Shown: positions 956-55,108, counted from the first letter of the stretch. The stretch is 64,000 nucleotides of DNA from an uncultured Candidatus Binatia bacterium (GCA_965219905.1 CBDCOS010000008.1:640183-704182), one strand, 5' to 3'. The notes: a model not told the origin generated them from the sequence alone. Made by a program: numbers and translations.

Positions 956-966
956 TCCGTGTCCTG

Positions 967-2475: not shown

Positions 2476-2514
2476 GGCTCGCTCCTTGAACTGACTTGGT
2501 CCTCGCGCTTGCGG

Positions 2515-3051: not shown

Positions 3052-3106
3052 CGGTCATGAACCCGGTCTTACCCCGCTTGCCTGGCGGTTTGCGCGCGGC
3101 AAGTCG

Positions 3107-3649
3107 TCAGAGGTCCCGCAACTGTCGCGAGAAGTCGTCGACCATGCGATCCTGGTCGGCGGCCGCCATGTGCTGCTGGATTGCCCGCTCCGCGGCGGCC
3201 TCCGCCAGCAGCGCCATTTCCCCACGGATCTGCTGCCGCGCCATCTTGACTTCCTGCTCGGCCAGGAAGTCGGCGTCGGCCTTCAGCTTGGCTGCCGACT
3301 CTTCCGCCTCGGCCACGATACGCGCCCGTTCGCGCTCGCCCTCGGCTCTCAGCCCTTCCCGGATCCGCTCGCATTCATCATCGAGAACATTCAGCAATTC
3401 CCGGTACTTCCGGACGTACCCCTCGGCTTCGCCCTTGGCCTGCTGGGCCGTAGCCACGGCCTCGACGAGTCCCTGGCGGCGCTGCTTCAGGTGCTCACTT
3501 ACGAGCGGGAGGCCGTAGCGCTTGACCAGCCAGGCGAAGATCAGGAAGTTGATCAGCGGGAAGAGCAGCTCCGTGATGGAGGGGGTGTGGGCTCCGTCCG
3601 CGGAAGCGGCCCAGGCCGTGGACACGAGTATGTCGGTCAAGAGGGTCAT
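3107..3649 (-). CDS. atpF: ATP synthase Fo subunit b
   Basis: 180 aa with an N-terminal TM helix followed by a long charged Ala/Glu/Arg-rich helix. Has a 4-bp overlap with the upstream b' gene. Confidence 0.8.
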   Translation of the reverse strand: MTLLTDILVSTAWAASADGAHTPSITELLFPLINFLIFAWLVKRYGLPLVSEHLKQRRQGLVEAVATAQQAKGEAEGYVRKYRELLNVLDDECERIREGLRAEGERERARIVAEAEESAAKLKADADFLAEQEVKMARQQIRGEMALLAEAAAERAIQQHMAAADQDRMVDDFSRQLRDL

Positions 3650-4074
3650 GTCAGCTTCCGGCCCAGCACCTTCTCGGCCATCTCCTGAGCCAGCGCTTCG
3701 GCGTTGGCCGAGGCCACTCGGCGCGCCGCCTCCAGCTCGCTCCGGACCTCTTCCCGTATCTCCTGAATCTTCTGGGTGGCGGCGTCGCGGCCCTGGGAGA
3801 GGATGAGGTTGCGGGCCTTGAGCGCCTCTTCCCGGATTTCGCTCTTGATCGCCTCGCCCTCGGCCCGGGCAGTGGCGATGGCGGCGTTGTATTGTGCCTG
3901 CAACTCCTGCCCTTCTTCCGTCAGGGAACGGGCCTCGGCGTGGGAGCCCTCGGTCCTGCGCTCCCGTTCCGCCATCAGACGCCCCACGGGCCCGAACAGC
4001 ACCCGCCGGAGAATGCTCCAGAGGATCAGGAACAGGACGATTTGGACCACCAGGGAATAATCTATGCTGATCAT
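3646..4074 (-). CDS. ATP synthase Fo subunit b' (second b-type subunit)
   Basis: 142 aa with one N-terminal TM helix and a charged helical stalk, paralogous to the adjacent b subunit. This b/b' arrangement is as in alphaproteobacteria and cyanobacteria. Confidence 0.75.
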   Translation of the reverse strand: MISIDYSLVVQIVLFLILWSILRRVLFGPVGRLMAERERRTEGSHAEARSLTEEGQELQAQYNAAIATARAEGEAIKSEIREEALKARNLILSQGRDAATQKIQEIREEVRSELEAARRVASANAEALAQEMAEKVLGRKLT

Positions 4075-4369
4075 GCTACGCGTTCGGTGTTGATGACGCC
4101 GGACTCGGAGAGAGCCCCGGTCATGGAAGATTCGGAGATGGCGTGAACCGAGATGCCGTCAGGTCGTTCTATAAACTTCGTCCTTCCCCTTGTTGGCTTC
4201 ATGACGTCAACCGCAGGAACGGCGTGACGTTCCCAATCGGGAAAGCCTCGATAGCCTGCCCAGTAGCTTGTTTTTACGAAGGCGCGGCGCATGTCGCGTC
4301 GCGCCGGATGAGCCGCGGTCGCAGTCTGCGGAAAGGCACGCCTCTAACTGTCAACCAAGGTCAGGCTAT

Positions 4370-4398
4370 AGCATTCGCGCCCTTGCTTGTCAAAGCGA
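4370..4398 (-). promoter_or_regulatory. Candidate sigma70 promoter for the atp operon (-35 TTGACA, 17-bp spacer, -10 TATAGC on the minus strand)
   Basis: Minus strand reads TTGACAagcaagggcgcgaatgcTATAGC (plus-strand coordinates 4398..4370). It is in the parB-atpF' intergenic region, upstream of the atpF' start at 4074. Confidence 0.3.
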
Positions 4399-4431
4399 GT
4401 GCGGAGGCGAGGCGGAAGCCGGCGGCCGCCG

Positions 4432-5295
4432 CTACACGGTGCCCATCATCATGCTCGTTATCCGCTCCAGGTCTTCCTGCGAATAGTACTCGATCTCCAG
4501 CTTGCCCTTGTCGTCGCGGGCCCGATGCGTGAGCCGGACCCGGGTGCCGAGGCGGCGCTGCAACGTTTCGACCAGGTGGGAAAGGTCCGGATCCAGGCGG
4601 TCCTCGGTCCTGGTCCGCCTGGGGGCGTTCAGCCGCTTCACCAGCGCCTCGGTATCCCGGGTGGAGAGGTCCTTCGCCATGACCTCACGCGCGGCGGCGG
4701 CCGTCATCGAACGGTCCTTGAGGCCCAACAGGGCCCGTGCCTGGCCGGCGGGCAACTCGCCACGGGAGACATGTTCCTTGATCGGGTCGGGCAGCGACAA
4801 CAGCCGCAGGGCATTGGCGACCGCGGAACGGCTTCTACCGACCCTTTCGGCCACCTGTTCCTGGGTCAGGTTGAACTGTTCCTGCAGCTCCGCGAAAGCG
4901 GCAGCCTCTTCGATGGGGTTCAGGTCTTCGCGCTGCAGGTTCTCGATCAAGGCCAGCAGAAGCGAGTTCGGGTCGGCGGTTTCGTGAACGATTATAGGGA
5001 CTTCCGAGAGTCCCAACCGCCTCGCCGCGCGCAGGCGCCGCTCGCCCGCGATGAGCTCGTAGCCCCCGGCCGTGGAACGCACGACCAGTGGCTGCAGCAT
5101 GCCGCTGGCCTCGATGGAGCCGGCCAGCTCGTTGATCTTCTCGTCGTCGAAGACCCGCCGGGGCTGGTTCGGATTGGGTGCGATCAACAAAGGATCGACC
5201 ACCGTGGGAGACGCCGCCGAAGGAGCATCCTCCACCACGGGTTCGCTTCCGGGCAGCAGGGCATCGAGACCCCGTCCAAGTCTATTCTTCTGCAT
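4432..5295 (-). CDS. parB: Chromosome partitioning protein ParB (Spo0J)
   Basis: 287 aa. MQKNRLGRGLDALL start, ParB box GERRLRAARRLG, and an HTH region. Confidence 0.9.
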   Translation of the reverse strand: MQKNRLGRGLDALLPGSEPVVEDAPSAASPTVVDPLLIAPNPNQPRRVFDDEKINELAGSIEASGMLQPLVVRSTAGGYELIAGERRLRAARRLGLSEVPIIVHETADPNSLLLALIENLQREDLNPIEEAAAFAELQEQFNLTQEQVAERVGRSRSAVANALRLLSLPDPIKEHVSRGELPAGQARALLGLKDRSMTAAAAREVMAKDLSTRDTEALVKRLNAPRRTRTEDRLDPDLSHLVETLQRRLGTRVRLTHRARDDKGKLEIEYYSQEDLERITSMMMGTV

Positions 5296-6064
5296 GGCTT
5301 CGCTCCTTCCGGCCCATCAGTTCGGTCGCCAGGCTCAGGTAGCTCTGCGCTCCCGTCGAACGGGCGTCGTAGAGCAGCGCGGGCATTCCATGGCTGGGGC
5401 TCTCGCTCAGTCGGACGTTCCGCGGGATGACCGTCTCGAAGACGGCGTCCGGAAAATGATCGCGAACATCCTTGGCGACCTGGGCCGAGAGATTGCTCCG
5501 GCTATCGTACATGCAAAGGACCACGCCCTCGAGCCGAAGGTGCTGGTTGTACGACGTCCGGACGCGTTTCATGGTGTCCAGGACCGCGGTGAGGCCCTCG
5601 AGGGCGTAATACTCGCACTGAAGGGGGACCAGCAACGAATCGGCAGCCGCCAGGGCGTTGAGCGTCAGAAGACCCAGGGACGGCGGACAATCCAGCAGGA
5701 TGTAGTCGAATCTGTATCGGACGGTCTCCAATGCCTGCCTCAACCGGCCGATGCGGTCCTCCATGTCGATCATCTGGATCTCCGCGCTCACCAGGTCGCG
5801 GTTCGCGGGCAACAGGAACAGCGACGGCATCTCCGTGGCGCAGAGCGCTTCGGTGACGAAACAGTTCTCCAGCATCACGTCGTAGATGCTCTTGTTGAGA
5901 GACCTGGGCTCGACCCCGAAGCCGGTGGTGCTGTTGCCCTGAGGGTCCATGTCCACGATCAGCGTCTTTTTCGCGGCGATGGCCAGGGACGCGGCGAGAT
6001 TCACGGCCGTGGTGGTCTTTCCGACTCCGCCCTTCTGATTGGCTATGGCGATGATGGTTCCCAA
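5282..6064 (-). CDS. parA: Chromosome partitioning ATPase ParA (Soj)
   Basis: 260 aa. Deviant Walker A KGGVGKTT in MGTIIAIANQKGGVGKTTTAVNLAASLA. 14-bp overlap with parB. Confidence 0.9.
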   Translation of the reverse strand: MGTIIAIANQKGGVGKTTTAVNLAASLAIAAKKTLIVDMDPQGNSTTGFGVEPRSLNKSIYDVMLENCFVTEALCATEMPSLFLLPANRDLVSAEIQMIDMEDRIGRLRQALETVRYRFDYILLDCPPSLGLLTLNALAAADSLLVPLQCEYYALEGLTAVLDTMKRVRTSYNQHLRLEGVVLCMYDSRSNLSAQVAKDVRDHFPDAVFETVIPRNVRLSESPSHGMPALLYDARSTGAQSYLSLATELMGRKERSHAEE

Positions 6065-6182
6065 AAGATTTTATATTTCGGTAGGTTATGGCTTATCCGG
6101 CAACTTGATTTGTAGCACGACAGGGGCGGAAAAGGAAGTCCGGTGTTTCACGTGAAACACCGGCACACGCAAGGGTCGGGGG

Positions 6183-6848
6183 CTACGACTTCCGGAACAC
6201 GAGCACGGTTCTGCGCTCGCCGCCGAAGGGCAACTCGAAACTCACGTTTCTCTCTGGGCGGAGGGCGTATTCCGGTAGTTTCTCTCGGACTTGATCCTGG
6301 ACGGCGGCGCCCTTCGGCCCTTGCATCAAGACGCACAGCCCCCCTCGAGCCAGGAGGCTTCCGCTGACCCTGAGGAACCCGTGAATGTCCGAGAAGCCAC
6401 GGGTGACGGTTTCCTCAATGGCCGGCAACCCTTCGCCCGCCAGGTCCTCGATACGGCTCTCGATCACATGCAGGCCGGTCAGCTTGAGCTCGCGCGCGAC
6501 GTGCCTCAGGAAGTTCGCCCGTTTTCGGCGCGGTTCCACCAGGTAGACAGGTTTCCCGGGAAGCGCGAGCTTGATGGGGATACCGGGGAAACCGGCTCCA
6601 CTGCCGATGTCCAGGAGGCTGCCGTGACGGCTCACCAACGGAACGACGGAAAGCGAATCGATGAAGTGGCGCCGTACGACCAGGTCTTCGTCGTGGATGG
6701 CCGTGAGGTTCAGTCGCGCACCCCAGAACGAAAGCAGGGACAAGTAGTCCCGGAAGGCTTTCGTTTGATGCGGGGAAAGCTCGACATCGAAGCAAACGGC
6801 GCCGGCGGTCAGAAGTCGCTCGCTCCTGTCTGAATCCGTGGCGGCCAC
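6183..6848 (-). CDS. rsmG: 16S rRNA (guanine527-N7)-methyltransferase RsmG (GidB)
   Basis: 221 aa. SAM-binding motif DIGSGAGFPGIPIK. Classical position between parA and mnmG. Confidence 0.85.
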   Translation of the reverse strand: MAATDSDRSERLLTAGAVCFDVELSPHQTKAFRDYLSLLSFWGARLNLTAIHDEDLVVRRHFIDSLSVVPLVSRHGSLLDIGSGAGFPGIPIKLALPGKPVYLVEPRRKRANFLRHVARELKLTGLHVIESRIEDLAGEGLPAIEETVTRGFSDIHGFLRVSGSLLARGGLCVLMQGPKGAAVQDQVREKLPEYALRPERNVSFELPFGGERRTVLVFRKS

Positions 6849-6862
6849 GCGAGGAGACGGGA

Positions 6863-8761
6863 TCAGCCGGCCTTCATCTTGTAGAGATAAAGGGAAAGCA
6901 CGGAAATGGCCGCGGGGGTCACGCCGGAGATTCGGTAGGCCTGTCCCAATGAACGGGGCCGCACGTGGGAGAGCTTCTCCCTGATCTCACGCGAGAGCCC
7001 GTTGATTTGCCCGTAGTCCAGGTCCTCCGGGAGGGTCACGTTCTCCATCTTCTGAAACCGCTTGAGACCCTGGGTCTGGCGGTCGACGTAACCACTGTAC
7101 TTTATTGAAACTTCCGCTTGGAGCGCCACGTCCGACGGGACCGTTGCCAGCTCCGGACAGAACGCGGCCAGGCTCCCGAAAGCGATCTCCGGCCGGCGGA
7201 GCAACTGTGCCAACGACGTAATGTTCCGTACAGGCGCCGTTTCCATGGTGCGGAGCTGCTCCTGCACCGGCTGTGACGGCTGGATCCGGGTGTTCTCGAG
7301 CTTGTGGGTCAACTCGGTAATCTGCTCCTGTTTCCGGGCGGTCCGGGCGTAGGCCTCCGGGGTGGCGAGCCCGATACGGTGCCCCATCTCGGTCAGACGC
7401 AGGTCCGCGTTGTCCTCCCGGAGCAGCAGACGGTATTCGGCCCGGGAAGTGAACATCCGGTAGGGCTCGCCGTCGGTTCCCTTGGTGACCAGGTCGTCGA
7501 TCAGAACGCCGATGTACGCCTGGTCGCGGGAAAGGACCAGCGGCTCGTCCCCCTTGAGGCTGAGACACGCGTTGATGGCGGCCATCAGCCCCTGGCTGGC
7601 GGCCTCCTCGTACCCGGTGGTCCCGTTGATCTGACCGGCCAGATAGAGGTTGCCGACGGATTTCGTCTCCAGGGAAGGCTTGAGCTGGGTCGGCTCCACG
7701 TAGTCGTACTCGATGGCATAGCCGGGCCTCATGATCTCGGCCTCCTCCAGCCCTTCGATGCTGTGGACCAGGTCCACCTGGACATCGAGAGGGAGGCTCG
7801 TGGAGATTCCGTTCGGGTAGACCTCCACCGTGTCATACCCCTCGGGCTCCAGGAAGATCTGATGCCGCTGCTTGTCCGCGAAACGCACCACCTTGTCCTC
7901 GATGGACGGGCAGTAACGCGGTCCGCGGCTCTTGATGACACCGGAATACATGGGCGATCGGTGGATGGCCTCGCGGATGATCTCGTGCGTCCTGGGGTTC
8001 GTATAGGTGATGTGGCAGGGGATCTGCTTCTGCTCGATCCTCTCCGTGCCGAAGGAGAACGGTATCGGGGTTTCGTCGCCGTCTTGAACCGAAAGTCTTG
8101 AATAATCAATGGTGTGGGCGTTCAAACGCGGGCAGGTCCCGGTCTTGAGCCGGCCCAGCCGGAGCCCGAGCGCGCTCAACGAGGCGCTCAGTCCCTGGGC
8201 AGCGAAATCGCCGGCCCGGCCGGCCGAGTAGTTGCGGTCGCCCACGTGGATGACGCCCTGAAGAAAGGTCCCGGTCGTCAGTATGGTCTTCCTGGCCTCG
8301 AATACTTCCCCGATCTGCGACTCGACTCCCAAGACCCTTCCGTCACGGCACAGCAGCGCCTCGACGCTGGCCTGCTTGAGGGTCAGATTCTCGCAGTTCT
8401 CCACCACCCGTTTCATCCGCCGCCGGTACAGGGCCTTGTCCGCCTGAGCCCGGGAGGCCCTGACGGCCGGCCCCTTCTTCGTGTTCAGCATGCGGAACTG
8501 GATGCCGGTCTCGTCGATGGCGCGGGCCATCTCACCGCCGAGGGCGTCGATTTCCTTGACGAGATGCCCTTTCCCGATGCCGCCGATGGCTGGATTGCAC
8601 GACATCTGGCCGATGTGGTCGAGGTTCAACGTCAACATCAACGTGTCGAAACCCATGCGCGCGGCCGCCAGGGCGGCTTCGATGCCCGCGTGTCCGGCGC
8701 CGACGACGATGACGTCGTAGATTCTGCCGTTCCCCTTGTCCGACTGTTTCACGTGAAACAT
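6863..8761 (-). CDS. mnmG: tRNA uridine 5-carboxymethylaminomethyl modification enzyme MnmG (GidA)
   Basis: 632 aa. FAD motif YDVIVVGAGHAGIEAALAAARMG and conserved MnmG blocks (SCNPAIGGIGKGHLVKEIDALGG, GPRYCPSIEDKVVRF). Confidence 0.95.
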   Translation of the reverse strand: MFHVKQSDKGNGRIYDVIVVGAGHAGIEAALAAARMGFDTLMLTLNLDHIGQMSCNPAIGGIGKGHLVKEIDALGGEMARAIDETGIQFRMLNTKKGPAVRASRAQADKALYRRRMKRVVENCENLTLKQASVEALLCRDGRVLGVESQIGEVFEARKTILTTGTFLQGVIHVGDRNYSAGRAGDFAAQGLSASLSALGLRLGRLKTGTCPRLNAHTIDYSRLSVQDGDETPIPFSFGTERIEQKQIPCHITYTNPRTHEIIREAIHRSPMYSGVIKSRGPRYCPSIEDKVVRFADKQRHQIFLEPEGYDTVEVYPNGISTSLPLDVQVDLVHSIEGLEEAEIMRPGYAIEYDYVEPTQLKPSLETKSVGNLYLAGQINGTTGYEEAASQGLMAAINACLSLKGDEPLVLSRDQAYIGVLIDDLVTKGTDGEPYRMFTSRAEYRLLLREDNADLRLTEMGHRIGLATPEAYARTARKQEQITELTHKLENTRIQPSQPVQEQLRTMETAPVRNITSLAQLLRRPEIAFGSLAAFCPELATVPSDVALQAEVSIKYSGYVDRQTQGLKRFQKMENVTLPEDLDYGQINGLSREIREKLSHVRPRSLGQAYRISGVTPAAISVLSLYLYKMKAG

Positions 8762-8853
8762 CCTTCGCTGACTTGCGGATCAGAATTCCAATTCTGCCAA
8801 ATTCCCGAACAAACTTCCACGCGACCGAGCAACCCCGGCCACGGCCCGGAGCA

Positions 8854-10221
8854 CTACTTCCCGATGCAGAACTGAGAGAAAATACGGTCGAGGATGTCGT
8901 CGTTGGTCACCGTGCCGATGATCTCCTCCAGGCTGTCGCGGGCTTCCTGCAGGTCCACCGCAACGATATCCGGCGGCAAACCCCGGTCTATCGCCCTGCA
9001 CACCTCCACCAGGTGTGTCCGGGCCCGATCCAGGGCGGCCTTGTGGCGAACGTTGGTCACGACGATCTCCGGCTCCTCCGCGGAGTCGAGAAAACAGTCG
9101 CGCAAGGCGGCCTTCAGTCCGTCCAGCCCCTGGCTCGTCAACGCCGACACCTCGACCTGCTGAAGTTCCGGCAAGTAGTCCGAGACGGCCGATGGGTCGA
9201 TCTTCCGGGGCAAATCGGACTTGTTGATGACCACGAGCCCTTGCCTGGTCCGGACCTTCTCCATCACCGTCGCGTCTTCCGGGGTCAGCGGCGAAGACCC
9301 GTCGAGAACGAGCATGCATCCCTGGCTCTCCTCGAGCCGCTTCAGGGTCACGTCGATGCCGATCTGCTCCACATCCTGGGTGCCGTCCCTGATGCCCGCG
9401 GTGTCCCACAGGACCACGGGCAGGCCCTTGAGATTGACGGTTTCCTCGATGAAGTCCCGTGTCGTTCCGGGCGTCGCCGTGACGATGGCCCGCTCCACGC
9501 CCAGCAATGCATTCATCAGGCTCGACTTGCCGACATTGGGCCGTCCGACGATGCATACCCGGACGCCCTCGCGGATCAACCGTCCCCACGCGTAACTGTC
9601 AACGAGCGCCGAGGTCCTTTCCACCACTCCGGCGACCTTGCGCCCCAGCTCTTCGCGCTGGAGCAGCTCGATCTCTTCCTCCGGGAAGTCGATGGCCGCC
9701 TCCACCTGCACCAGCGTATCCACGAGCTGTTCGCGCAGGTCCTTTACCTCCCGCGACAGCCCGCCCTCCATCTGGCCCAACGCGACGCCGGCGGCCTTTT
9801 GCGTACGCGACCGGATGAGATCCAGCACGGCCTCGGCCTGGGATAAATCCAATCGACCGTTCAAATAAGCCCTCCTGGTGAACTCTCCCGGCTCCGCATG
9901 CCGCGCACCGTGCTCCAGCGCCAGCCCGAGCACCTGCCGCACCACGTAGGGCCCGCCGTGGCAATGGATTTCCACGGTATCCTCGCCGGTATAGCTTCCG
10001 GGCTCCTGGAGATACACAAACATCACCTCGTCCACCACGGCCCCATTAACCGGATCCCGGACCCGCCCGTGGTACAACCGGTGCGACTCCCACTCGGCAC
10101 CCTTGCGGGCGAGGAGCTCGGTCCCGATGCGTCTGGCATCCGGACCGCTCAGGCGCACCACCGCGATCCCTCCCTCTCCGGGAGGCGTCGCCACCGCTGC
10201 TATGGTATCGGCCCGGTACAT
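8854..10221 (-). CDS. mnmE: tRNA modification GTPase MnmE (TrmE)
   Basis: 455 aa. MYRADTIAAVATPPGEGGIAVVRLSG start, G-domain GRPNVGKSSLMNALL and DTAGIR, and the C-terminal CIGK motif (ends FCIGK). Confidence 0.95.
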   Translation of the reverse strand: MYRADTIAAVATPPGEGGIAVVRLSGPDARRIGTELLARKGAEWESHRLYHGRVRDPVNGAVVDEVMFVYLQEPGSYTGEDTVEIHCHGGPYVVRQVLGLALEHGARHAEPGEFTRRAYLNGRLDLSQAEAVLDLIRSRTQKAAGVALGQMEGGLSREVKDLREQLVDTLVQVEAAIDFPEEEIELLQREELGRKVAGVVERTSALVDSYAWGRLIREGVRVCIVGRPNVGKSSLMNALLGVERAIVTATPGTTRDFIEETVNLKGLPVVLWDTAGIRDGTQDVEQIGIDVTLKRLEESQGCMLVLDGSSPLTPEDATVMEKVRTRQGLVVINKSDLPRKIDPSAVSDYLPELQQVEVSALTSQGLDGLKAALRDCFLDSAEEPEIVVTNVRHKAALDRARTHLVEVCRAIDRGLPPDIVAVDLQEARDSLEEIIGTVTNDDILDRIFSQFCIGK

Positions 10222-11556: not shown

Positions 11557-13743
11557 TCACGCGTTCCTTGCGTTTTCTAGCGCATCGCCGTCGAGGCCCA
11601 GCGATTCGAGCACGGGACCGAAGTGCCCCGCGAAGCTCCCCGCCACGGGACCGTCGACAATCAGACGCTGGTCGCTGCCGCAATGGATAACCAGGGCATC
11701 CGCCAGGGTGCGTGACAACCGGCTGAAACGAACCTCGTCTCTCGGGTAGGTCCTCAACGCGCCGTCGTCGAGCGAGAGCTCCTCCTTCGGAACCTCCCCC
11801 ACAACGACGCGGTCAGGAAACAGGAGCACCCAGCCCGCCCGCCCGTTGCCGGACGACGCCTCGAACACCGCGACGGCCCGGCTCCGAACGCCGGAAGTGA
11901 CGGCGTGGTCCCCGGGCGCAAGGAGTTCCCGGTCGCCCATCTGCCGCAGGATAGCCGGCGCCGACCCTGACGGGACCTTCGACAGCGTCCCGTACTCCAG
12001 GCGGTCGCGCAGCCGCGACTCCAGCGCCTTCAGATATCCCGACCAGACCGCGGCGACCTGCTTGCGCTCCGGGAGCAACACCGAAGCATTGAACAGCACC
12101 ATGTGGTCGTGCTCGACCGGCCAGTCCACCGCGGCCTTCGTCGCCAGCAGATCGACCAAGGACGCCATCAACGGTTCGGCCAGGGGGTCTCCGACCAGGT
12201 CCCGCGGGGGCTCGATCAAGTGTCGCTCGCCTTCCGCAATGCGTTCGACGCCGAGGCCGCCATCGTCGAAGGCGGTCGCCATTGCCTTCTCCAGCAGCAC
12301 GCGGTTCACCTCATCACCGATGCGCTTGCGCGCCGCCACGGCGAACGCACTGTCTTCGATCACTCGCCGTGCTTCCCCCGTGTCGAGCCCACACCAGTCG
12401 CGGGCAAGCATCGCGAGCTGAATGAATCCCTCCTCGATCCGTATCTCCTCGCGGCTGCCGGCGCCGATGAGATCAACCTGAAGGCCTATCGACAGCGCCT
12501 TCTCCATTTCCTCGATCGCCTGGCTGGCCTTCGGCTCATTCAATCCACGCATGTCCCGCAGGATCGCGCCTAGACACTCGGCAATCGCCTGGCGTTGCGC
12601 GGGGCGCAAGGCCGCGAGGTCGACGGACGGCGTCAGGGTGGCGTCCGGTTCGCCGTCGTCGGCGAGTGCGCGCAGCAGCGCCAACTTGGCGAACTCGTCC
12701 GGAATCCGGGCGCGCAGGACGCGGTCCAGCAGGACCTTGCGGTTGTGGTCGATCCCCGGAACCAGCTTGTGAATGCGAAGCGCCTCGACGAGCCCCAGCC
12801 AATCCGCGCTCCGGTACGTGTGGTCCGGATCGTATGCGCGCGCCGCGTGCAGATAGACCAGCGCGACCGAACCTTCCAGCAGTTCCTTCAGCCAGGCCTC
12901 GGCGTACCTCTTGACGACGTGCTTGCCGACCCGCGAAAACGCCTCCCCGGCGAGAACCGACGCCGCCAGCGTAACCGGGTTCGCGCCGAGGGCAACGCGA
13001 GCGGCCAGCGTCGCGCCGCGCACATAATGCTGCCAGGGAGTGTACATCCGGTAGAGTCTGCGCGCCTTCTGCACTTGTTCGAGCCGCGTCACGACCTCCC
13101 TTACGGTCCACCCCGCGACGTTGACCACCGGCACCTGCTGGGCGACTTGCAGGAGGTCGCCGATCACGGACCGTGCAGCAAACGCGATGTCACCGATGCG
13201 CGCATCGAGTTCCGCCTTTTCGGCATCCTTCCCGTACAGCCGGGCCACTTCCCTCACCACATCGCGGATTTCCTCGAAAATGGCGCGGCCGTCGACGCCC
13301 TTGATCTCCCCGTCCTCTTGCTTCACGTAGCGCCGGTCGCGGATGCCGTCCCAGACGCGGTCGCAGCGGGCCTGGATCATTCTCCCGAGTTGAGCGTCCT
13401 GCTCCGACGGCGGCTCGTCCGTTTCGGGGCCGTGCGACCGCCGGAGCGCGCCCCAGGCCTGCTCCACCGGCGACACGCCCTCGGCCAGCCAGCGCTTCTC
13501 GACCTCTCTCAGATCGCGCTCACGCAGCTCGTCGATGTGCTGCTCGACGTCCGCGAGGAGCCTTCGGTCAACGGCAGCGGATCGCGTGAGGCCCGTCGCG
13601 AAACCCAGCGCGCCGGCGCCGAGCAGGGTGACCGCGATCCCCAATTCCGCCGAGACCATGAACAGGAGAGCGACCCCCGCGGCCGTGACGCTGCATCCTG
13701 CAAGTAACCAGCCGGCGGACGCGCTCATTCGGATCCATCGCAT
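11557..13743 (-). CDS. Large hypothetical protein with an N-terminal hydrophobic segment (two probable TM helices) and a ~650-aa predicted cytoplasmic alpha-helical domain, function unknown
   Basis: Long uninterrupted ORF with gene-like codon usage. I chose the internal Met MRWIRMSASAGWLLAGCSVTAAGVALLFMVSAELGIAVTLLGAGALGFATGL as the start because the track's upstream extension (to 13929) overlaps the neighbouring gene. No recognisable enzymatic motif. Confidence 0.55.
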   Translation of the reverse strand: MRWIRMSASAGWLLAGCSVTAAGVALLFMVSAELGIAVTLLGAGALGFATGLTRSAAVDRRLLADVEQHIDELRERDLREVEKRWLAEGVSPVEQAWGALRRSHGPETDEPPSEQDAQLGRMIQARCDRVWDGIRDRRYVKQEDGEIKGVDGRAIFEEIRDVVREVARLYGKDAEKAELDARIGDIAFAARSVIGDLLQVAQQVPVVNVAGWTVREVVTRLEQVQKARRLYRMYTPWQHYVRGATLAARVALGANPVTLAASVLAGEAFSRVGKHVVKRYAEAWLKELLEGSVALVYLHAARAYDPDHTYRSADWLGLVEALRIHKLVPGIDHNRKVLLDRVLRARIPDEFAKLALLRALADDGEPDATLTPSVDLAALRPAQRQAIAECLGAILRDMRGLNEPKASQAIEEMEKALSIGLQVDLIGAGSREEIRIEEGFIQLAMLARDWCGLDTGEARRVIEDSAFAVAARKRIGDEVNRVLLEKAMATAFDDGGLGVERIAEGERHLIEPPRDLVGDPLAEPLMASLVDLLATKAAVDWPVEHDHMVLFNASVLLPERKQVAAVWSGYLKALESRLRDRLEYGTLSKVPSGSAPAILRQMGDRELLAPGDHAVTSGVRSRAVAVFEASSGNGRAGWVLLFPDRVVVGEVPKEELSLDDGALRTYPRDEVRFSRLSRTLADALVIHCGSDQRLIVDGPVAGSFAGHFGPVLESLGLDGDALENARNA

Positions 13744-13882
13744 GTCGCCATCCTTCGGCAGGGTGTCCCGCCGGCAGGACCCAGTTCCATGCCTCGCAAT
13801 GGGTTCCTGCTTGCTCGGATCGTAGCGGGCAGGGGCAACCGGCCCGTCGTCCCTGCGGGAGAATCCACCCGAGCGTAGACAG

Positions 13883-14977
13883 CTAGAGATCCACGGCCCT
13901 TCCCTGATCCGACGACTCGACGATGGCATCCACCAGCCGGTGCAGGTCCACGGCCGTGTTGAAATCCGGCTCGCAGCCCGTGCCGTTGCGGATCGCGCCG
14001 GCGAACCTCACGTACATCTCCGCGACGTTCCAGGGCTCTTTCTCCGGCGTCCCGGCCGGCGCCTTCACGTACTCGGCCGGCACCGGCAGGTCCTGGAGAC
14101 CCGAGTCTCCCGCCCTGGCTCCCCGCAGACGGACCACCTCGAGCTGCGGCGTGTTGTCGGACGTGGCCACCAGGGTCCCCTCGCGGCCATAGATCTCCAT
14201 GCCGTACCCGTACGCCTTGAAGGGTATGGCGGACACGTAGACCGAGGCCACCGCGCCGCTGGCCAGCCGCCCGCTCACCAGCACGTTGTCCGGAGAGGTG
14301 ACGTCCACGTAACGTTGGGTATCGGTCTCGAGCCACTGACGTGCCTGGGAGCTCACCACCGCGGACACGGAGCTGAAATCACCTGCGATGAACCGCAGCG
14401 CGTCGATGGTGTGGCCGTGGGCGATGGTCAGGGTGTTGGCGCCCAGGGACGCGTCCTTTTGCCAGCTCCGGTCCGAGGGCCAGTTCAGTATGCCGCCACG
14501 CGCGACGCTCACGTGGCAGGCCATGACCTCGCCCACGTAGCCGTCCGCCACCAGGTCCCTCGCGTAGACGATGGCCGGGTTGGCCCTGGCCTGCAGACCC
14601 ACCATGTGCCTGAGGTCCCGGGCCTCGGCCAGGTCGCGCATCTCCACGGCCTCGGCCCGGGTCTTTCCCAACGGCCACTCGGTGAAGACATGCTTGCCGG
14701 CATTGAGGGCATCCATGGTCACCTGGTAGTGGGCCGGAACCCGCAGCACCACCGCCACCGCTTCGATGTCGGGACAGGCGAGCATCTCGTGGTAGTCGGC
14801 GAACGCCAGCTTCGCGCCGAACTTCGCGGCCGATTCCTCGGCGCTCTCCTTGCGGGTGGTGCAGACAGCCGTCAACTCCACGTCGCGGCTGGCGACGATG
14901 GCGCGCATGTGCGCCCTCGGACCCCATCCACGGGTGGGATTCGCGCCGATGACACCTAACTTTATCTTCTCGGCCAC
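13883..14977 (-). CDS. Gfo/Idh/MocA family NAD(P)-dependent oxidoreductase
   Basis: 364 aa. Rossmann N-terminus MAEKIKLGVIGANPTRGWG and a typical GFO_IDH_MocA C-terminal domain. Confidence 0.85.
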   Translation of the reverse strand: MAEKIKLGVIGANPTRGWGPRAHMRAIVASRDVELTAVCTTRKESAEESAAKFGAKLAFADYHEMLACPDIEAVAVVLRVPAHYQVTMDALNAGKHVFTEWPLGKTRAEAVEMRDLAEARDLRHMVGLQARANPAIVYARDLVADGYVGEVMACHVSVARGGILNWPSDRSWQKDASLGANTLTIAHGHTIDALRFIAGDFSSVSAVVSSQARQWLETDTQRYVDVTSPDNVLVSGRLASGAVASVYVSAIPFKAYGYGMEIYGREGTLVATSDNTPQLEVVRLRGARAGDSGLQDLPVPAEYVKAPAGTPEKEPWNVAEMYVRFAGAIRNGTGCEPDFNTAVDLHRLVDAIVESSDQGRAVDL

Positions 14978-15040: not shown

Positions 15041-17083
15041 CTATGGCTCCAGGAGAGGCTTCAGCCCCTCCCAGTCCGTCACCGGCGCCGCACAGGTGAA
15101 GTTCCGGCAGACGTAGACCGTCGGCTTGCCGCCGACCTGCGACTTGCCCTCCAGCAGCGGAGAAATCTCCTCCAGCCTGGCGTCGGGGTCGACCCACTGG
15201 AGCGTCTTGTTGGGCAGGTAGCTGTCCTGCACCTGCTGCACGATTCCGCGCGCGTCCGCATCGTCCTTGTCCGCCACCATGACGATCTCCGCGGGCATCG
15301 ACAGGTGGAAGTCCAGGGCCCCGAGCATGGTGGCCAAGCCGAACGGCTCCTTCCCCATGGCGTCATAGTGAAGCCGCAGGACCTTCTCCGCCCGCTCCAG
15401 CAAGTCCTGCTCTCCGGTGTAGTGGTGGAGCCGCAGGAGCACCGAGGCGGCCACCGAGTTGCCCGACGGGATGGAGTGGTCGAACCCGGGCTTGGTGCGG
15501 CTGATGAGCTGCTCGTGGGACTTGCCGGTGTAGAAGAACCCGCCGTTGGCGTCGTCCCAGAACTCGTCCACCATGGTCCGGGCCAGGCCCTTGGCGCGCT
15601 CCAGGAGACCGGCCTCGAAGGTCGCCTCGAACAGGTCCAGCAGGCCGGCGATGAGGAAGGCGTAGTCGTCCAGGTAGCCCAGCAGCTTGGCCTGCCCGTC
15701 CTTGTACGTGTGCAGCAGGAGGCCCTTGTCGAACATGCGCGTGAAGATGAAGTCCACGGTCTTCGCCCCCGCCTCCCGGATGCGGGCGTCTCCGGTGATG
15801 GCATAGGCCGCGGCCAACCCCGACAGCATCAGGCCGTTCCAGGAGACGATGACCTTCTCGTCGCGGAAGGGCTTGACCCGCTTCTCCCGCTCCTCGAACA
15901 GACGCGCCCGGGACTCGCCCAGAACTGCCTCGATGTCCTGCTCGTCCTTGTTGAAGTACCGGGCCGCCTGCTCGACGGTCAGGATCGGGTGCAGGATGTT
16001 CTTGCCCTCGAAATTGCCGAGATCGGAGACGTCGTAGACCCGGCAGAAGATCTCGCCGTGCTCCTTGCCCAGCAGCTCCAGGACCTCCTCGCGGGTCCAC
16101 ACGAAGAACTTGCCTTCCTCGCCCTCGCTGTCCGCGTCCTGGGCCGAGTAGAAACCGCCTTCGGGCTGGCACATCTCCCGCAGCGCGTACTCCAGGGTCT
16201 CCTCGACGATGCGCTTGAAGAAGCCGTCCCCGGTGATGCGGTAGGCCTCGGCGTAGACCTGCGCGAGCTGGCCGTTGTCATAGAGCATCTTCTCGAAGTG
16301 GGGGACCAGCCACTTGTCGTCCACCGAGTAACGGTGGAAGCCGCCGCCGAGCTGGTCGTACATGCCGCCCTCGGCCATCTTGCGGAGGGTCTCGGTGATC
16401 ATCTCCAGGTAACGCTGGTTCCCCGACAGCCGGTAGGAGCGCAGGAACAGGTTGAACACCCCGGCGTTGGGAAACTTGGGCGCCCGGCCGAAGCCGCCGT
16501 GGTTGGCGTCGTAGGCCGGGGTCAACCCCGCGGCGCCCCCGGTGACGACATCCACGCTCAGTTCCTGGCCCGTCTCGCTGAGCACGCTCATGCGGTCCAG
16601 CGCCGCCACGAGCTGGTCGACGTTCTTGGCCACGTCCTGCGGCTTGTTGCGGTATGCCTCCACCACCGCCTTCAGCACCCTCGGAAACCCCGGCATGCCC
16701 TGCCGGTCCTCGGGCGGATAGTAGGTGCCGCCGAAAAAGGGCTTGCCCTCCGGGGTCAGGAACACGGTCATGGGCCAGCCGCCCCGGCGGATGAGCATCT
16801 GCACCGCGTTCATGTAGATCTCGTCCAGGTCCGGCCGCTCCTCCCGGTCCACCTTGATGCTGACGAAGTTCTCGTTCATCAGCGCGGCGATGGCCTCGTT
16901 CTCGAAGGACTCGTGCTCCATCACGTGACACCAGTGGCAGGCCGAATAGCCGATGCTCAGGAGGATCGGCTTGTCTTCCTCCCGGGCCTTGGCAAAGGCT
17001 TCCTCTCCCCAAGGGTACCAGTCCACCGGGTTGCCGGCGTGCTGCAGCAGATACGGGCTCGTCTCGTTGGCCAGGCGGTTCAT
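15041..17083 (-). CDS. Thioredoxin-domain protein (DUF255 / YyaL-like, with a six-hairpin glycosidase-like C-terminal domain)
   Basis: 680 aa. N-terminus [60 protein letters not shown] is the DUF255 thioredoxin-like signature. Confidence 0.85.
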
Positions 17084-17114
17084 TGGCAGGTTCTCCTATG
17101 GCACTTCTTCAACA

Positions 17115-17474
17115 TCAATACTTGCGGACCACCGCAACCACCACGCCGCGGACCTCCACGTCCGCTTCATCCGCCGCGATGGGGGCGAGCCCTTCGTCCG
17201 CGGACCGCAGCAGCACCTTCCCGCCCTGACGGTGGAACCGCCTGACCGTCGCCTCGCCTCGGACCGTGGCCACCACCGTGTCGCCGTCCCGCGCCTCCGG
17301 CGACGACTGCACCAGGATGAGGTCTCCGTCCCGGAGCTGCTCCTCCGCCATGGAATCGCCCCGGACGCGCAGAGCGAACGTGCCGGGGCTTTGCGCCAGC
17401 TCCCTGGGCAAGCCCGGGGCGTCTTTCGCCTCCACCGGCTCGAGGACAGGCTCCGGCCGTCCAGGGACGGTCAT
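17115..17474 (-). CDS. S24 family peptidase (LexA/UmuD-like catalytic domain only, no DNA-binding domain)
   Basis: 119 aa with the Ser-Lys dyad context RVRGDSM ... GGKVLL. There is no N-terminal HTH, so it is UmuD-like rather than LexA. Confidence 0.7.
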   Translation of the reverse strand: MTVPGRPEPVLEPVEAKDAPGLPRELAQSPGTFALRVRGDSMAEEQLRDGDLILVQSSPEARDGDTVVATVRGEATVRRFHRQGGKVLLRSADEGLAPIAADEADVEVRGVVVAVVRKY

Positions 17475-17483
17475 GGGATCAGC

Positions 17484-17789
17484 CTAGCAGGCTCGGGATT
17501 CCATTACACCTTTGGCCACGTCGACCATGCCCCGGGCCTTGAGGGCGTTGGAGTCCTCCGCACCGTAGAACTTCCCGAGGTAGGCCGCCACCTTGCGCAA
17601 CACCTCGTAATGGGCCTCGGCGCACGCGCTCCGGGCCTCGGACGGCAGCTCGTCGAACTCCCGCTCGATGTTCCCGAGCCAGCCCGGCAGGTACTCCACC
17701 TCGATGTCCTTCCCGGTATAGAGATATCCCTCCAGCGAGCCGACCCTGGCCGCCAGGCCGTAGACCCGCGTGATGTCGGATGCATCCAT
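17484..17789 (-). CDS. Small hypothetical protein co-transcribed with the S24 peptidase
   Basis: ORF ends 9 bp before the S24 peptidase start. Start taken at MDASDITRVYGLAARV; no recognisable domain. Confidence 0.45.
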   Translation of the reverse strand: MDASDITRVYGLAARVGSLEGYLYTGKDIEVEYLPGWLGNIEREFDELPSEARSACAEAHYEVLRKVAAYLGKFYGAEDSNALKARGMVDVAKGVMESRAC

Positions 17790-17852
17790 GATCGCGTCCT
17801 CCCTCCTGCCGCCGTCGGTGCGGCACACGCCGCCGGCGCCGGATTATCGACA

Positions 17853-18920
17853 CTAGCGCGTCTCCCGCGTACCCGAGCGACGGTTCTTCTGATATTTCCT
17901 CACCGCCTGGTTGTGGTCCCGCAGCCTCGCCGAGAAGTGGTGGCGGCCGTCGTTCGTGGACACGAAGTACAGGTATCCGACGTCCGCCGGATGGAGCGCC
18001 GCCTTCATGGCGGCCAGGCCGGGATTGGCGATGGGACCCGGAGGCAACCCCTTGATCGTGTAGGTGTTGTAGGGGCCGGGGGTGCGCAGGTGCTTGCGGG
18101 TCAGGTCGCCGTTGAAGTCCTCGAGGCCGTAGATGACCGTCGGATCGCTCTGGAGCCGCATGCGCCGCTTCAAGCGGTTGTGGAAGACGGCGGACACCAG
18201 CGGCATGTCCGCGACCGGGCCGCCTTCCTTCTCGATGATGGAGGCCAGCGTCACCACTTGATGCCGGGTCATCCCGAGCTCCCGGGCGCGCGCTTCCATT
18301 TCCGGAGTGAAGGTGTCCTTGAACTCGGCGAACATCGTCTTGGCGATCTCTTCCTCGGTGGCCAGCGCCCGGAAGTGATAGGTGGTGGGGAAGAGATAGC
18401 CTTCCATGCTTTCGGCCCCGAGGCGGGCGAGGGCGGCCGGATCGGTCACCGCCGCCGCGAACCGCTCCGGCGTCGCCAGTCCCTTCCGTTCCAGCAGGCT
18501 GCCGATCTGCCGGACCGTGAAGCCCTCGGGAATGGTCACCTTGTAGAACACGGTCCTGCCGCGGACCAGCCCGTCGAGCACCGACCGGGGCGACACCGCC
18601 CCCTCGAAGCGGTAGAGGCCCCGGTGCACTCTCGTATCGAGTCCGCGCAACCAGGCCCAGAACACCAAGAGCCGGGGCTGCGAGACGACCCCCTTTTCGC
18701 CGAGCTCGCGGGCCACCGACGCAAACGTGTCGCCGCGCCGGATCTCGATCTCCGCAACCGACGAATGGCCGTGGTAGGGGGTCAGGAGGAACGCGGCCAT
18801 GTAACCGAGGACGATGAGGGCGGCGAGCAGCAGGAAAGCGCCGGCAACCAGAAGGCCTCGACGACTGGAAAGCACGGAGTCGGGCACCTTTAGTTGTCGG
18901 TTACGTTCACCTTCATCCAT
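17853..18920 (-). CDS. mltG: Endolytic murein transglycosylase MltG (YceG family)
   Basis: 355 aa with an N-terminal TM anchor and YceG-like domain blocks (LYFVSTNDGRHHFSARL). Confidence 0.85.
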   Translation of the reverse strand: MDEGERNRQLKVPDSVLSSRRGLLVAGAFLLLAALIVLGYMAAFLLTPYHGHSSVAEIEIRRGDTFASVARELGEKGVVSQPRLLVFWAWLRGLDTRVHRGLYRFEGAVSPRSVLDGLVRGRTVFYKVTIPEGFTVRQIGSLLERKGLATPERFAAAVTDPAALARLGAESMEGYLFPTTYHFRALATEEEIAKTMFAEFKDTFTPEMEARARELGMTRHQVVTLASIIEKEGGPVADMPLVSAVFHNRLKRRMRLQSDPTVIYGLEDFNGDLTRKHLRTPGPYNTYTIKGLPPGPIANPGLAAMKAALHPADVGYLYFVSTNDGRHHFSARLRDHNQAVRKYQKNRRSGTRETR

Positions 18921-19462
18921 CCTTCGATCTGCTTCAGGAAACCGGAGAACGGATCGTCCTTTTTCGGCGAAGCCGCAAAGTAGGCCTTGTGCATGTAGTC
19001 GAGGGCTCCGGACAGGTACTCGAACTTCTCCGAGAGCTCCTGGAAGAGCAGGAATCCGGTCCGGTAGAGCGACAGGTCCACTTCGGAGACCTTCCAGTAG
19101 GACCGGCTGCCTTCCTGCAGGTAGTAGTCCAGGTACCCGCCGCGCTCCACGTAGGACCGGAAGAACCCGCTCATGAACAGGGTGTAGTCCCCCAGGTACT
19201 TCCGCATCCGCCGTTCCTGCATCAGGGGGTTCTCGCGCGAAACCGTAGCGTCGTCCGCCGCCAGCATCTCCACCACGCTGTCGAGCCGCTGGTTCCTGCG
19301 GGAACGCATGCGGTACAGCCGGTCGCTGCGGGCGAACTCCGTCAGCACGTCCGCCACGTAGCCCGTCACCTCGGCATCGCGGATCCCCAGCTCACCGAAG
19401 CATCGTTGCGTCGTATTCAGGAAGAACCCCTGCAATCGGTCTCTCGAAAGGATCTTTTTCAT
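18890..19462 (-). CDS. Hypothetical protein (no recognised domain)
   Basis: About 190 aa from MKKILSRDRLQGFF. Lies between mltG and the divergent thiD; coding-like composition. Confidence 0.45.
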   Translation of the reverse strand: MKKILSRDRLQGFFLNTTQRCFGELGIRDAEVTGYVADVLTEFARSDRLYRMRSRRNQRLDSVVEMLAADDATVSRENPLMQERRMRKYLGDYTLFMSGFFRSYVERGGYLDYYLQEGSRSYWKVSEVDLSLYRTGFLLFQELSEKFEYLSGALDYMHKAYFAASPKKDDPFSGFLKQIEGWMKVNVTDN

Positions 19463-19610
19463 GGCGTCACCCGTGGCAGCGTATGGCATCAGGAAACGGC
19501 GGGGATGTCAACTCGTTTCGCGCGGGGCATCGACCGCCGGCGCGGTGGCCGGGCGAGGCCTCTCGGCGTCCCCCGCGAGCTCGCCTTTCCGCGGCTTGAC
19601 GCTGCTCGCC

Positions 19611-20435
19611 ATGCCTCATAACCTGCGAAGATTCGTTTTGGGAAGCGCTTCGGTGAAGATCTACAAGGCACTCACCATCGCGGGATCGGATTCGGGGGCC
19701 GGAGCCGGCCTTCAGGCGGACCTCAAAACCTTTGCCGCGCTCGGGGTCTACGGCACGTCCGTGGTCACCGCCATCACCGCCCAGAACACCACCGGGGTCA
19801 CGCGCGTCCTCGAGACGCCGGCACCGGTGGTGGCCGCGCAGATCGACGCCGTCATGGACGACATCGGCGCCGACGCGGTCAAGACCGGCATGCTCGCCAA
19901 CGCCCGCATCATCCGCACCGTCGCCGACAAGGTCCGGCAGCACGGTATCCGGCGCCTGGTGGTGGACCCGGTGATGGTGGCCAAGGGCGGCCACGTCCTG
20001 CTGCGCCCGGACGCCGTCCGGACGCTGCGGACCCGGCTGTTGCCGCTGGCAACCGTGGTCACGCCGAACCTGCCCGAGGCGCAGGCCCTGACAGGAGTGG
20101 ACGGGACCGGGGTGCGCGCCATCCGGGAGATGGCCAAACGCATCGTCGATATGGGCGTCACGAGCGTCGTGGTGAAAGGGGGGCATCGAAGGGGAGCCGC
20201 CACTGACATCTTGTTTGACGGCGCGGCATTCCACGATTTCCCGGCTTCCCGGATACGGACGCGGAACACCCATGGAACAGGGTGCACGTACTCGGCGGCC
20301 CTGGCCTGCGGCCTGGCACGTAACAGGTCATTGGAAACCGCGGTCGCCGAAGCAAAGGCGTTCATTACCGAGGCCATCCGCCAAGCGTACTCCATCGGAG
20401 CGGGGCACAGCCCGGTGAATCATTCCCACCGGTAG
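19611..20435 (+). CDS. thiD: Hydroxymethylpyrimidine / phosphomethylpyrimidine kinase ThiD
   Basis: KIYKALTIAGSDSGAGAGLQADLKTFAALGVYGTSVVTAITAQNT is the ThiD/PdxK ribokinase-family signature. Start taken at MPHNLRR (19611). Confidence 0.85.
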   Translation: MPHNLRRFVLGSASVKIYKALTIAGSDSGAGAGLQADLKTFAALGVYGTSVVTAITAQNTTGVTRVLETPAPVVAAQIDAVMDDIGADAVKTGMLANARIIRTVADKVRQHGIRRLVVDPVMVAKGGHVLLRPDAVRTLRTRLLPLATVVTPNLPEAQALTGVDGTGVRAIREMAKRIVDMGVTSVVVKGGHRRGAATDILFDGAAFHDFPASRIRTRNTHGTGCTYSAALACGLARNRSLETAVAEAKAFITEAIRQAYSIGAGHSPVNHSHR

Positions 20436-31307: not shown

Positions 31308-31590
31308 CCGTCATTCCCGCAGCTTTTCCGTCATTCCCGCGGAAGCGGGAATCCAGGGGCGGAGAGGGGCCAAACGGGCGTATTCCCCGCCTCACCCCGC
31401 CTGGATTCCCGCTTTCGCGGGAATGACGGAGGGGAGCGGAGGATGACGGCTCGGGGCGTTAGCGACACTTCGTATCCGAGTGGAGTCTTGACACAGCTTC
31501 TTCGCGGGAATGACGGCAAGAGCCGTCGATGCTATCTCCTATCCGAGCGCAGTCTTGGTACAGCCTGGGAAGCGGGAATCCTGGGACGCG
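31308..31590. repeat. Cluster of the palindromic repeat family: a partial unit plus one complete ~100-bp palindromic element (31330-31429), followed by further half-units
   Basis: ccgtcattcccgcggaagcgggaatccaggggcgg ... ccgcctggattcccgctttcgcgggaatgacgg. The arms are reverse complements and each arm has its own TTCCCGCG/CGCGGGAA hairpin. Confidence 0.8.
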
Positions 31591-31612
31591 GAGGAAGGGC
31601 AAGCAACGCATC

Positions 31613-32617: not shown

Positions 32618-32640
32618 CCACCTGATGAACCTGTCCTTTC

Positions 32641-32712
32641 CCGTCATTCCCGCGGCTTTTCCGTCATTCCGGCAGCTTTTCCGTCATTCCCGCGGAAGCG
32701 GGAATCCAGGGG
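32641..32712. repeat. Palindromic repeat family: three tandem partial units (ccgtcattcccgcggcttttcc x3), the last complete through gaagcgggaatccagggg
   Basis: Direct inspection. Confidence 0.8.
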
Positions 32713-32731
32713 AAGGGAGGGAGGTAGTTTC

Positions 32732-53882: not shown

Positions 53883-55108
<1,226 letters not shown>

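Follow-up and report, generated by a model that had tools for sequence, protein, structure and literature searches.

A truncated lexA gene in a clade of Candidatus Binatia that probably persists as a non-catalytic C-terminal-domain remnant

LexA is the textbook repressor of the SOS response, and its C-terminal domain is normally regarded only as the part that dimerises and cleaves itself in the service of the DNA-binding domain. Here, we analyzed a gene for a stand-alone S24 (LexA/UmuD-type) domain of 119 amino acids (aa) in a stretch of 64,000 nucleotides (nt) from an uncultured Candidatus Binatia bacterium (GCA_965219905.1, CBDCOS010000008.1:640183-704182; the whole stretch is hereafter called the window). 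An earlier note on this DNA had described the gene and a small upstream open reading frame (ORF) as a two-gene cassette with an intact Ser-Lys dyad, and had taken the S24 protein to be neither LexA nor part of a umuDC operon. On the evidence of synteny and sequence, we identify the gene as the positional orthologue of lexA with an in-frame internal deletion and not as an orphan S24 gene, because full-length lexA fills the same syntenic slot in seven related loci. The remnant, that is, lexA minus its DNA-binding half, has probably been kept as a non-catalytic and probably dimeric protein-binding module. The wider statement that, in one Binatia clade, independent in-frame deletions repeatedly turned LexA into a selected, stand-alone and non-catalytic C-terminal-domain protein is put forward only tentatively, and in this full form we consider it rather doubtful. 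The features of the locus are as follows:

17115..17474, minus strand: S24 ORF, the internally deleted lexA (119 aa; ATG at 17474, TGA at 17115-17117)
17439..17444, minus strand: deletion junction, codon 11 CTC/codon 12 GAG, corresponding to L11/E91 of full-length Binatia LexA
17352..17354, minus strand: Ser41 (TCC), equivalent of the catalytic Ser (Escherichia coli S119), kept in the window copy
17241..17243, minus strand: Arg78 (AGG) at the catalytic Lys position (E. coli K156, Mycobacterium tuberculosis K197)
17475..17483, minus strand: spacer GCT GAT CCC (9 nt) between the small ORF stop and the S24 start
17484..17789, minus strand: small ORF (101 aa; ATG at 17789, TAG stop at 17484-17486)
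17797..17807, minus strand: Shine-Dalgarno sequence of the small ORF, AGGAGGGAGGA, 7 nt 5' of the ATG at 17789 (sequence read directly)
17853..18920, minus strand: upstream flank mltG (YceG), which ends 63 nt before the small ORF (Pfam/NCBIfam)
15041..17083, minus strand: downstream flank, DUF255 thioredoxin-domain protein (YyaL-like) (Pfam)

To place the gene, we examined the window together with 23 loci found through homologues of the small ORF, giving 24 loci that all come from Candidatus Binatia metagenome-assembled genomes (MAGs), some of which carry the label Deltaproteobacteria, Thermodesulfobacteriota or Syntrophobacterales. At 7 of the 24 loci (L004, L008, L009, L013, L016, L022 and L023), the same slot is occupied by a full-length LexA (198-201 aa) comprising the winged-helix domain PF01726 (residues 3-64 in L004), a VAAG cleavage site and the Peptidase_S24 domain PF00717. 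In the window and the other 16 loci, the first 1-11 residues of LexA are fused to the C-terminal domain (equivalent to about residues 84-198), and the window protein, in which MTVPGRPEPVL precedes the C-terminal S24 domain of LexA, shares 74% identity with residues 90-198 of the full-length LexA of L004. The conserved gene order is 199-aa ORF, mltG, small ORF, lexA or its remnant, and DUF255 gene; mltG is syntenic in 22 of the 24 loci, and the DUF255 gene follows lexA or the remnant in all 24 as well as in the deeper Binatia loci L026-L029. The C-terminal domain has been lost altogether in none of the loci. It should be noted that the exact 119-aa protein is present in NCBI, ENA and Logan records on several contigs, and that the 17 truncated loci derive from both short-read and long-read MAGs; thus, the truncated gene is not an assembly artefact.

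Profile searches agreed with the descent from lexA. The protein matched PF00717 with E=5.6e-24 and 84.5 bits (gathering score 23.3; positions 22-116 of 116), and its hits to solved LexA C-terminal domains reached E=1.9e-17 (M. tuberculosis LexA). Neither PF01726 (LexA_DNA_bind) nor another helix-turn-helix domain could be found in it, in agreement with the earlier note, and Pfam saw PF00717 alone. The NCBIfam lexA model TIGR00498 aligned only over positions 97-201 with 90.5 bits, below its cutoff of 110.95. The AlphaFold2 (AF2) model had a predicted local distance difference test score (pLDDT) of 84, with predicted disorder confined to residues 1-6, and a fold search against the PDB with this model returned LexA C-terminal domains first, followed by UmuD' (E ~2e-6). 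No annotated name was carried by any of the examined cluster members of the protein. Thus, the statement that the protein is not LexA holds for function and fails for descent: judged from its domain content, the remnant could not bind operators as a repressor, because it has no winged helix, whereas by position it is the orthologue of full-length lexA.

The Ser-Lys dyad, which had been reported as kept (GDSM ... GGKVLL), is incomplete in the window copy. Ser41 is present, but the catalytic Lys position is occupied by Arg78. In the HMMER alignment with the M. tuberculosis LexA C-terminal domain (PDB 6a2q), whose catalytic mutants were deposited as S160A and K197A, the window sequence ATVRRF lies opposite ATVKTF. 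The Lys of ATVKTF can be identified as K197, the equivalent of E. coli K156, because it stands 37 residues past the GDSM serine; the Lys of GGKVLL lies opposite a Gln of M. tuberculosis LexA and is therefore not the catalytic residue. A joint alignment showed Lys in this column in all 29 full-length Binatia LexA sequences and Arg in 9 of the 17 truncated copies. Ser and Lys are both present in all full-length copies and are kept together in just 3 of the 17 truncated ones, and in different sublineages the Ser has been replaced by A, T, C, F or G and the Lys by R. In E. coli LexA, the K156R change strongly impairs cleavage at neutral pH. With Lys replaced by Arg and no substrate loop, the window protein is very probably no active peptidase, and without the Ala-Gly bond it would have nothing to cleave in cis.

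The deletion junctions bear on how often the DNA-binding half has been lost. In the window, 79 codons (237 bp) are gone, including the winged-helix domain, the hinge and the VAAG cleavage site. Three types of junction could be distinguished, and all of them are in frame. Type I (the window, L001, L002, L003, L007, L010, L011, L012, L017, L018, L019, L020 and L021) joins codon 11 (..ATC CTC) to codon 91 (GAG CCG..), and fits the loss of 237 bp between two TCGA microhomologies of the ancestral sequence (ATC CTC GAC ... CCC ATC GAG). In type II (L005, L006 and L014), the ATG is followed by GCC-GCG-GGC-GTG, so that the protein begins as M-A-A/T-G-V, at the cleavage site itself; no other truncated copies have both Ser and Lys. 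Type III (L015) retains P89 and I90 (CCC ATG GAG), which are absent in type I; the flanking genes of L015 are sister to those of the full-length locus L016 with 100% bootstrap support, and its C-terminal domain groups with full-length copies in the tree. Because the junctions differ among lineages, the DNA-binding half of LexA appears to have been lost independently at least two times and possibly three, although the junctions show this only in part. In addition, the full-length lexA of L016 (6316-6911) contains a +2 insertion and a -3 deletion in the winged-helix region and has VSAG instead of VAAG, which could mean that the DNA-binding domain was inactivated independently once more, or that the long-read assembly is in error here.

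We also measured the ratio of nonsynonymous to synonymous substitution rates (dN/dS; NG86) in the LexA C-terminal domain over 108 aligned codons with 200 bootstraps. The ratio was 0.11 in full-length copies (bootstrap confidence interval (CI) 0.05-0.22) and 0.38 in truncated copies (bootstrap CI 0.27-0.52); in 99.5% of bootstraps, the ratio was higher for truncated than for full-length copies, and in none of the 200 did the truncated ratio reach 1. Within subclades of the same junction, it was 0.26-0.35, and two control genes gave 0.18 (small ORF) and 0.12-0.14 (DUF255 gene) in both groups. About 2.4% of point changes in the truncated ORFs would make a stop, and the type I tree comprises 1.8-2.7 synonymous substitutions per site, so that 16-24 nonsense hits would be expected under neutrality on this tree. 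The observed number was zero, and no nonsense or frameshift change could be detected in the 17 truncated copies. On the basis of these results, the remnant is shown to have been kept intact across many diverged genomes, under what the substitution ratios indicate to be relaxed but real purifying selection.

The relaxation was uneven along the domain and fell mainly on active-site residues. Six columns that are 97-100% conserved in full-length LexA (E. coli numbering) are relaxed in the truncated copies, namely S119 (59%), M120 (47%), T154 (59%), K156 (47%), P169 (47%) and N171 (6%). The truncated copies remain 94-100% conserved at G128, D129, G142, V145, V149, L167 and the C-terminal strand R-G-V-V-V-A-V-(I/V)-R-K-Y; the kept columns include G190-Y199. 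The site pattern is that of a pseudo-enzyme keeping the fold and one surface, and neither that of an active protease nor that of free decay.

On the basis of these observations, the following course of events may be proposed. An in-frame deletion of 79 codons would have joined lexA codon 11 to codon 91 at the TCGA microhomology, removing the winged-helix domain, the hinge and the Ala-Gly scissile bond, and the catalytic Lys of the window copy would have changed to Arg. The remnant would survive as a pseudo-peptidase with a UmuD'-like architecture that acts by binding another protein. It would probably be translated by coupling to the small ORF, a gene that in this lineage would have stood beside lexA in the ancestral operon and would be no partner specific to the S24 protein. 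All determinants of dimerisation reside in the LexA C-terminal domain, which is sufficient by itself (PMC11787620); dimerisation is therefore the most likely retained property of the remnant.

Several points weigh against this proposal. A dN/dS of 0.38 represents substantial relaxation, and a function of the remnant is inferred from selection alone. In the flanking-gene tree, full-length loci nest among truncated ones with weak bootstrap support, and the truncated loci are not monophyletic in single-gene and two-gene trees, again with weak support; therefore, a single origin of the type I junction needs recombination or lineage sorting, and the calculation of nonsense hits, in assuming a single origin, is at odds with the flanking-gene tree. 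That the junction of L005, L006 and L014 arose independently is suggested but not proven: counted from the sequences, about 18 of 24 nt match in this case versus 14-16 if it derived from type I. Finally, the pocket of LexA for RecA F203 comprises V79, V82, F111, L113, V146 and V153 and is formed only when the cleavage loop is closed (bioRxiv 10.1101/2023.10.30.564768). V79 and V82 fall in the deleted part, which makes canonical binding of the remnant to RecA*, otherwise an obvious candidate for its activity, doubtful.

A decaying relic is the alternative that survives best. It supposes that the deletion inactivated lexA and that the leftover ORF is functionless, its intactness reflecting short time or a constraint unrelated to the protein. 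The roughly three-fold increase in dN/dS and the repeated loss of catalytic residues would fit it, and so would the other deletions at the locus, where a fetAB-like ABC pair and smallB are gone and a fused ABC remnant is seen in L009. Multiple recent deletions would also mean less post-deletion time than assumed. On the other hand, the ratios of 0.26-0.35 were obtained inside same-junction subclades, that is, from post-deletion divergence, and the absence of nonsense and frameshift changes from 17 copies, against the expected nonsense hits, is difficult to reconcile with decay. The same is true of the fact that every deletion type is in frame, of the conservation of the C-terminal strand and fold core, and of the retention of the C-terminal domain at every locus. 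We therefore regard a mere relic as unlikely, while giving it some weight.

It is also conceivable that the remnant is a dominant-negative or modulating subunit that heterodimerises with a second, full-length LexA, whose gene would lie at another site of the genome, and thereby weakens or tunes repression. The dimerisation determinants of the C-terminal domain and the invariance of the presumed dimer strand in truncated copies would favor such a role. However, no further LexA-like sequence could be found in the 64-kb window, and a second LexA was not recognisable among the 120 best LexA relatives, though a divergent paralogue could escape this search, in which the contig data covered cluster representatives only. 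Two proteins, P0062 and P0122, were considered as second LexA proteins of truncated genomes and rejected, as they are syntenic orthologues in other genomes. Thus, a modulating subunit appears quite unlikely.

An operator upstream of the pair, which had been suggested as a check, was not observed: a scan with nine known consensus types of the LexA box gave no match near 17400-19600, and these types may not cover the box of Binatia. GAAC-N4-GTTC inside the small ORF of some loci was rejected as a LexA box because it is a coding coincidence (I-E-R-E-F) and is not kept in full-length lexA loci. Separately, a perfect palindrome, GTTCAAAACTTGAAC, lies at 3937-3951 in L026, L027 and L028, about 50 nt upstream of full-length lexA, and is a candidate operator of Binatia LexA; the regions 5' of lexA in L022, L023 and L029 did not contain it.

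With regard to UmuD', the remnant could be a similar accessory factor, which would serve a Y-family translesion polymerase from another locus as its dimeric and non-catalytic subunit. Both proteins consist of an S24 domain only (about 115 aa in UmuD'; PDB 1umu/1ay9) that starts near the cleavage site, and neither would need catalysis; moreover, UmuD' was among the PDB matches and the PHROG 'UmuD-like' family matched with E=3e-18. Against this, no Y-family polymerase (PF00817; umuC, dinB or imuB), RecA or ImuA/B domain occurs among the ORFs called across the 64-kb window, which agrees with the earlier observation that a umuC partner is missing. The NCBIfam models for UmuD (NF007621; 66.5, cutoff 110) and HumD (NF051876; 23.4, cutoff 120) scored below their cutoffs, and the remnant is far closer to LexA, as its identity to the Binatia LexA C-terminal domain indicates. 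Also unlike UmuD', which arises by proteolytic processing, the window protein is made directly by its gene, recently derived from lexA. A role of this kind is therefore very unlikely.

The pair itself had been compared with mobile-element immunity and stress modules, with the small protein as partner of the S24 protein. Its basic description was confirmed: two same-strand ORFs are separated by a 9-bp gap, and the upstream one is coding, as judged from 33 close homologues, its dN/dS and a strong Shine-Dalgarno sequence. It starts at the ATG at 17789 and not at the GTG at 17828, since the homologues, all about 100 aa long, begin with MDASD and the Shine-Dalgarno sequence lies 7 nt upstream of this ATG; the GGAGG block before ATGGAT is kept in all ingroup loci. 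The GC content at third codon positions (GC3) is 0.87-0.90 for both ORFs and typical for genes of this window (66% GC). The two ORFs share a reading frame with only TAG and three codons between them, and the same layout (TAA/TAG-GCTGRTYCG-ATG) also precedes full-length lexA in L004, L009 and L013. Because the spacer is in frame and contains no Shine-Dalgarno sequence of its own, the S24 ORF is probably translated by coupling to the small ORF. A promoter and terminator scan of 16900-19700, including the gap between mltG and the small ORF, predicted none.

The small ORF, which the comparisons identify as a genuine coding gene, belongs to a wider family. An exhaustive profile search gave 49 representatives at 50% identity, and a broader profile gave 850 clusters, all hypothetical, in Binatia, Thermodesulfobacteriota and Desulfobacterales, with the conserved motifs GSLEGYxY and YLPxW..N. 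As stated before, no recognisable domain is present: no match was obtained in Pfam, NCBIfam, PADLOC or PHROGs. AF2 predicted a four-helix bundle (pLDDT 88), for which the PDB returned only generic or designed helical bundles (best E=0.13, not significant). Beyond Binatia, the family adjoins genes for CTP-dependent riboflavin kinase (PF01982) and HAD hydrolases (L031, L032 and L033), and in two Thermodesulfobacteriota-type contigs the domain lies directly upstream of them (L031 4001-4747; L032 4001-4862). Fusions of the domain with PF01982 are present in P0187 and P0197 and one with an HD domain in P0175, and it also occurs as a tandem duplication (among P0159, P0175, P0187 and P0197). These neighbors hint at a link to flavin or nucleotide metabolism. 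P0154, a long protein with many matches to the small-ORF profile, was rejected as a family member because its low-complexity T/E/P-rich repeat makes the matches spurious; P0171 is another long protein with many such matches. In L019, a long tandem hexanucleotide array (CACGGA/TACGGA)n occupies about 5800-5990, directly upstream of the Shine-Dalgarno sequence of the small ORF.

The dedicated cassette, be it toxin-antitoxin, immunity or protease-substrate, would make the small protein the partner or substrate of an active S24 peptidase. The 9-nt spacing and the probable translational coupling are conserved in the ingroup, as would be expected for such a system. However, the small ORF precedes full-length lexA too, so that the pairing is older than the truncation. 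Deeper Binatia have a 65-aa ORF between the small ORF and lexA, with the DUF255 gene following, and one lexA gene from a still more distant member of Binatia has no small-ORF neighbour. Since the family adjoins or is fused with riboflavin kinase genes elsewhere, the small ORF would be no dedicated S24 partner. The catalytic Lys is lost, and neither protein matched PADLOC. The locus, syntenic in all 24 loci, belongs to the core chromosome: its surroundings are ATP synthase, parB-parA-rsmG-mnmG-mnmE, DAHP synthase, mltG, thiD and other housekeeping genes, and the nearest insertion sequence (IS) or integrase genes lie more than 36 kb away. The cassette idea can hence be regarded as highly improbable. 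Read-through or recoding of the single TAG, producing one protein of about 224 aa, was rejected as next to impossible: the shared frame and the LexA-like combined size would allow it, but many relatives have tandem stops (TGA-TAG or TGA-TAA), L008 and L019 carry the two genes in different frames, all 33 close homologues end at about 100 aa, and the in-frame layout would be inherited from the ancestral junction between the small ORF and lexA.

Compared with known systems, the remnant shares the S24 C-terminal fold with LexA (E. coli P0A7C2; M. tuberculosis PDB 6a2q/6a2s; TIGR00498), and with LexA of a sister genome it shares the chromosomal position, the start codon context, the dyad Ser and the C-terminal strand. 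It differs from LexA in everything that the deletion and the Lys to Arg change have removed and in its score below the TIGR00498 cutoff. In particular lineages, other members of the LexA/UmuD family have lost domain functions or divided them up differently, among them Acinetobacter UmuDAb and the non-cleavable cyanobacterial LexA. There, DNA binding is kept or gained and cleavage is lost or altered, whereas the window protein lost DNA binding and kept the C-terminal domain. Pseudo-enzymes, catalytically dead homologues that serve as binding modules, provide a further parallel, with active-site residues repeatedly replaced and with the fold and one surface under purifying selection; for the remnant, a binding or regulatory role is a predicted one. 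The searchable literature yielded nothing relevant on LexA without a DNA-binding domain or on LexA in Binatia.

A clade of uncultured soil and sediment bacteria would thus have kept only the C-terminal module of LexA, and the recurrent in-frame loss of the DNA-binding half, together with the decay of the dyad and purifying selection on the rest, should be of interest for the evolution of the SOS response. If the remnant is functional, it would point to a second, repressor-independent protein-protein role of the LexA C-terminal domain, and would provide a model for how lineages rewire or abandon LexA-controlled SOS. If the wider statement on repeated, selected conversion of LexA is true, these bacteria would manage their response to DNA damage with no LexA repressor encoded at the ancestral locus, and the locus would represent a natural replay of, and a testable model for, the origin of UmuD-type S24-only proteins from a LexA-like ancestor. 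If it is only a slowly decaying relic, the finding would be ordinary, yet it would correct an annotation trap, in that an 'S24 family peptidase' would be a dead lexA.

Several other features of the locus were observed. The ORF between the small ORF and lexA in deeper Binatia (65-67 aa; MKRVVIEL..GGSNAEIGLKL.DLI.QS..WW; L026 3736-3933, L029 3746-3949, L022 about 3866-4060) has no match in Pfam, PADLOC or PHROGs and was lost in the clade of the window. The 199-aa ORF at 18890-19489 (minus strand) overlaps the start of mltG by 31 nt and is syntenic in 21 of the 24 loci with 79-95% identity; it has no Pfam or NCBIfam match and, judged from this synteny, is a conserved partner of mltG in the lineage. 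In some relatives, mltG and the small ORF are separated by genes for an ABC ATPase (PF00005) and a UPF0014 (FetB/YbbM-type) permease. The pair is absent from the window, and in one relative an internal deletion has fused the N-terminus of the ATPase to the C-terminus of the permease, from which it follows that the locus has a history of deletions. The coordinates are as follows:

L004 4160-5600: ABC ATPase and UPF0014 pair
L013 4098-5540: ABC ATPase and UPF0014 pair
L016 3055-4499: ABC ATPase and UPF0014 pair
L019 4305-5740: ABC ATPase and UPF0014 pair
L009 5304-5927: fused ABC remnant

Elsewhere in the window, the genes at 98-10221 (minus strand) encode ATP synthase subunits, parB, parA, rsmG, mnmG and mnmE; this origin-proximal set suggests that the window lies near oriC. 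An ORF of 790 aa at 11557-13929 (minus strand) has a gene-like GC3 of 0.82 and no Pfam family at E<=1e-3. An IS3-family transposase is encoded at 53883-55108 (minus strand) by an ORF with an rve integrase core and an upstream 106-aa ORF, and the element contains an ALIL programmed-frameshift pseudoknot (RF01497; 54714-54830, 112.6 bits). It adjoins a mobile-element island at 55535-63749, which includes the following:

55535-56917: tyrosine integrase
57154-58938: large ORF (594 aa) with no Pfam match
59616-61196: IS21 IstB-like ATPase fused in a 526-aa ORF
61521-63749: large ORF (742 aa) with no Pfam match

Finally, three consecutive luciferase-like monooxygenase paralogues (PF00296) are encoded at 31529-34825 (plus strand).

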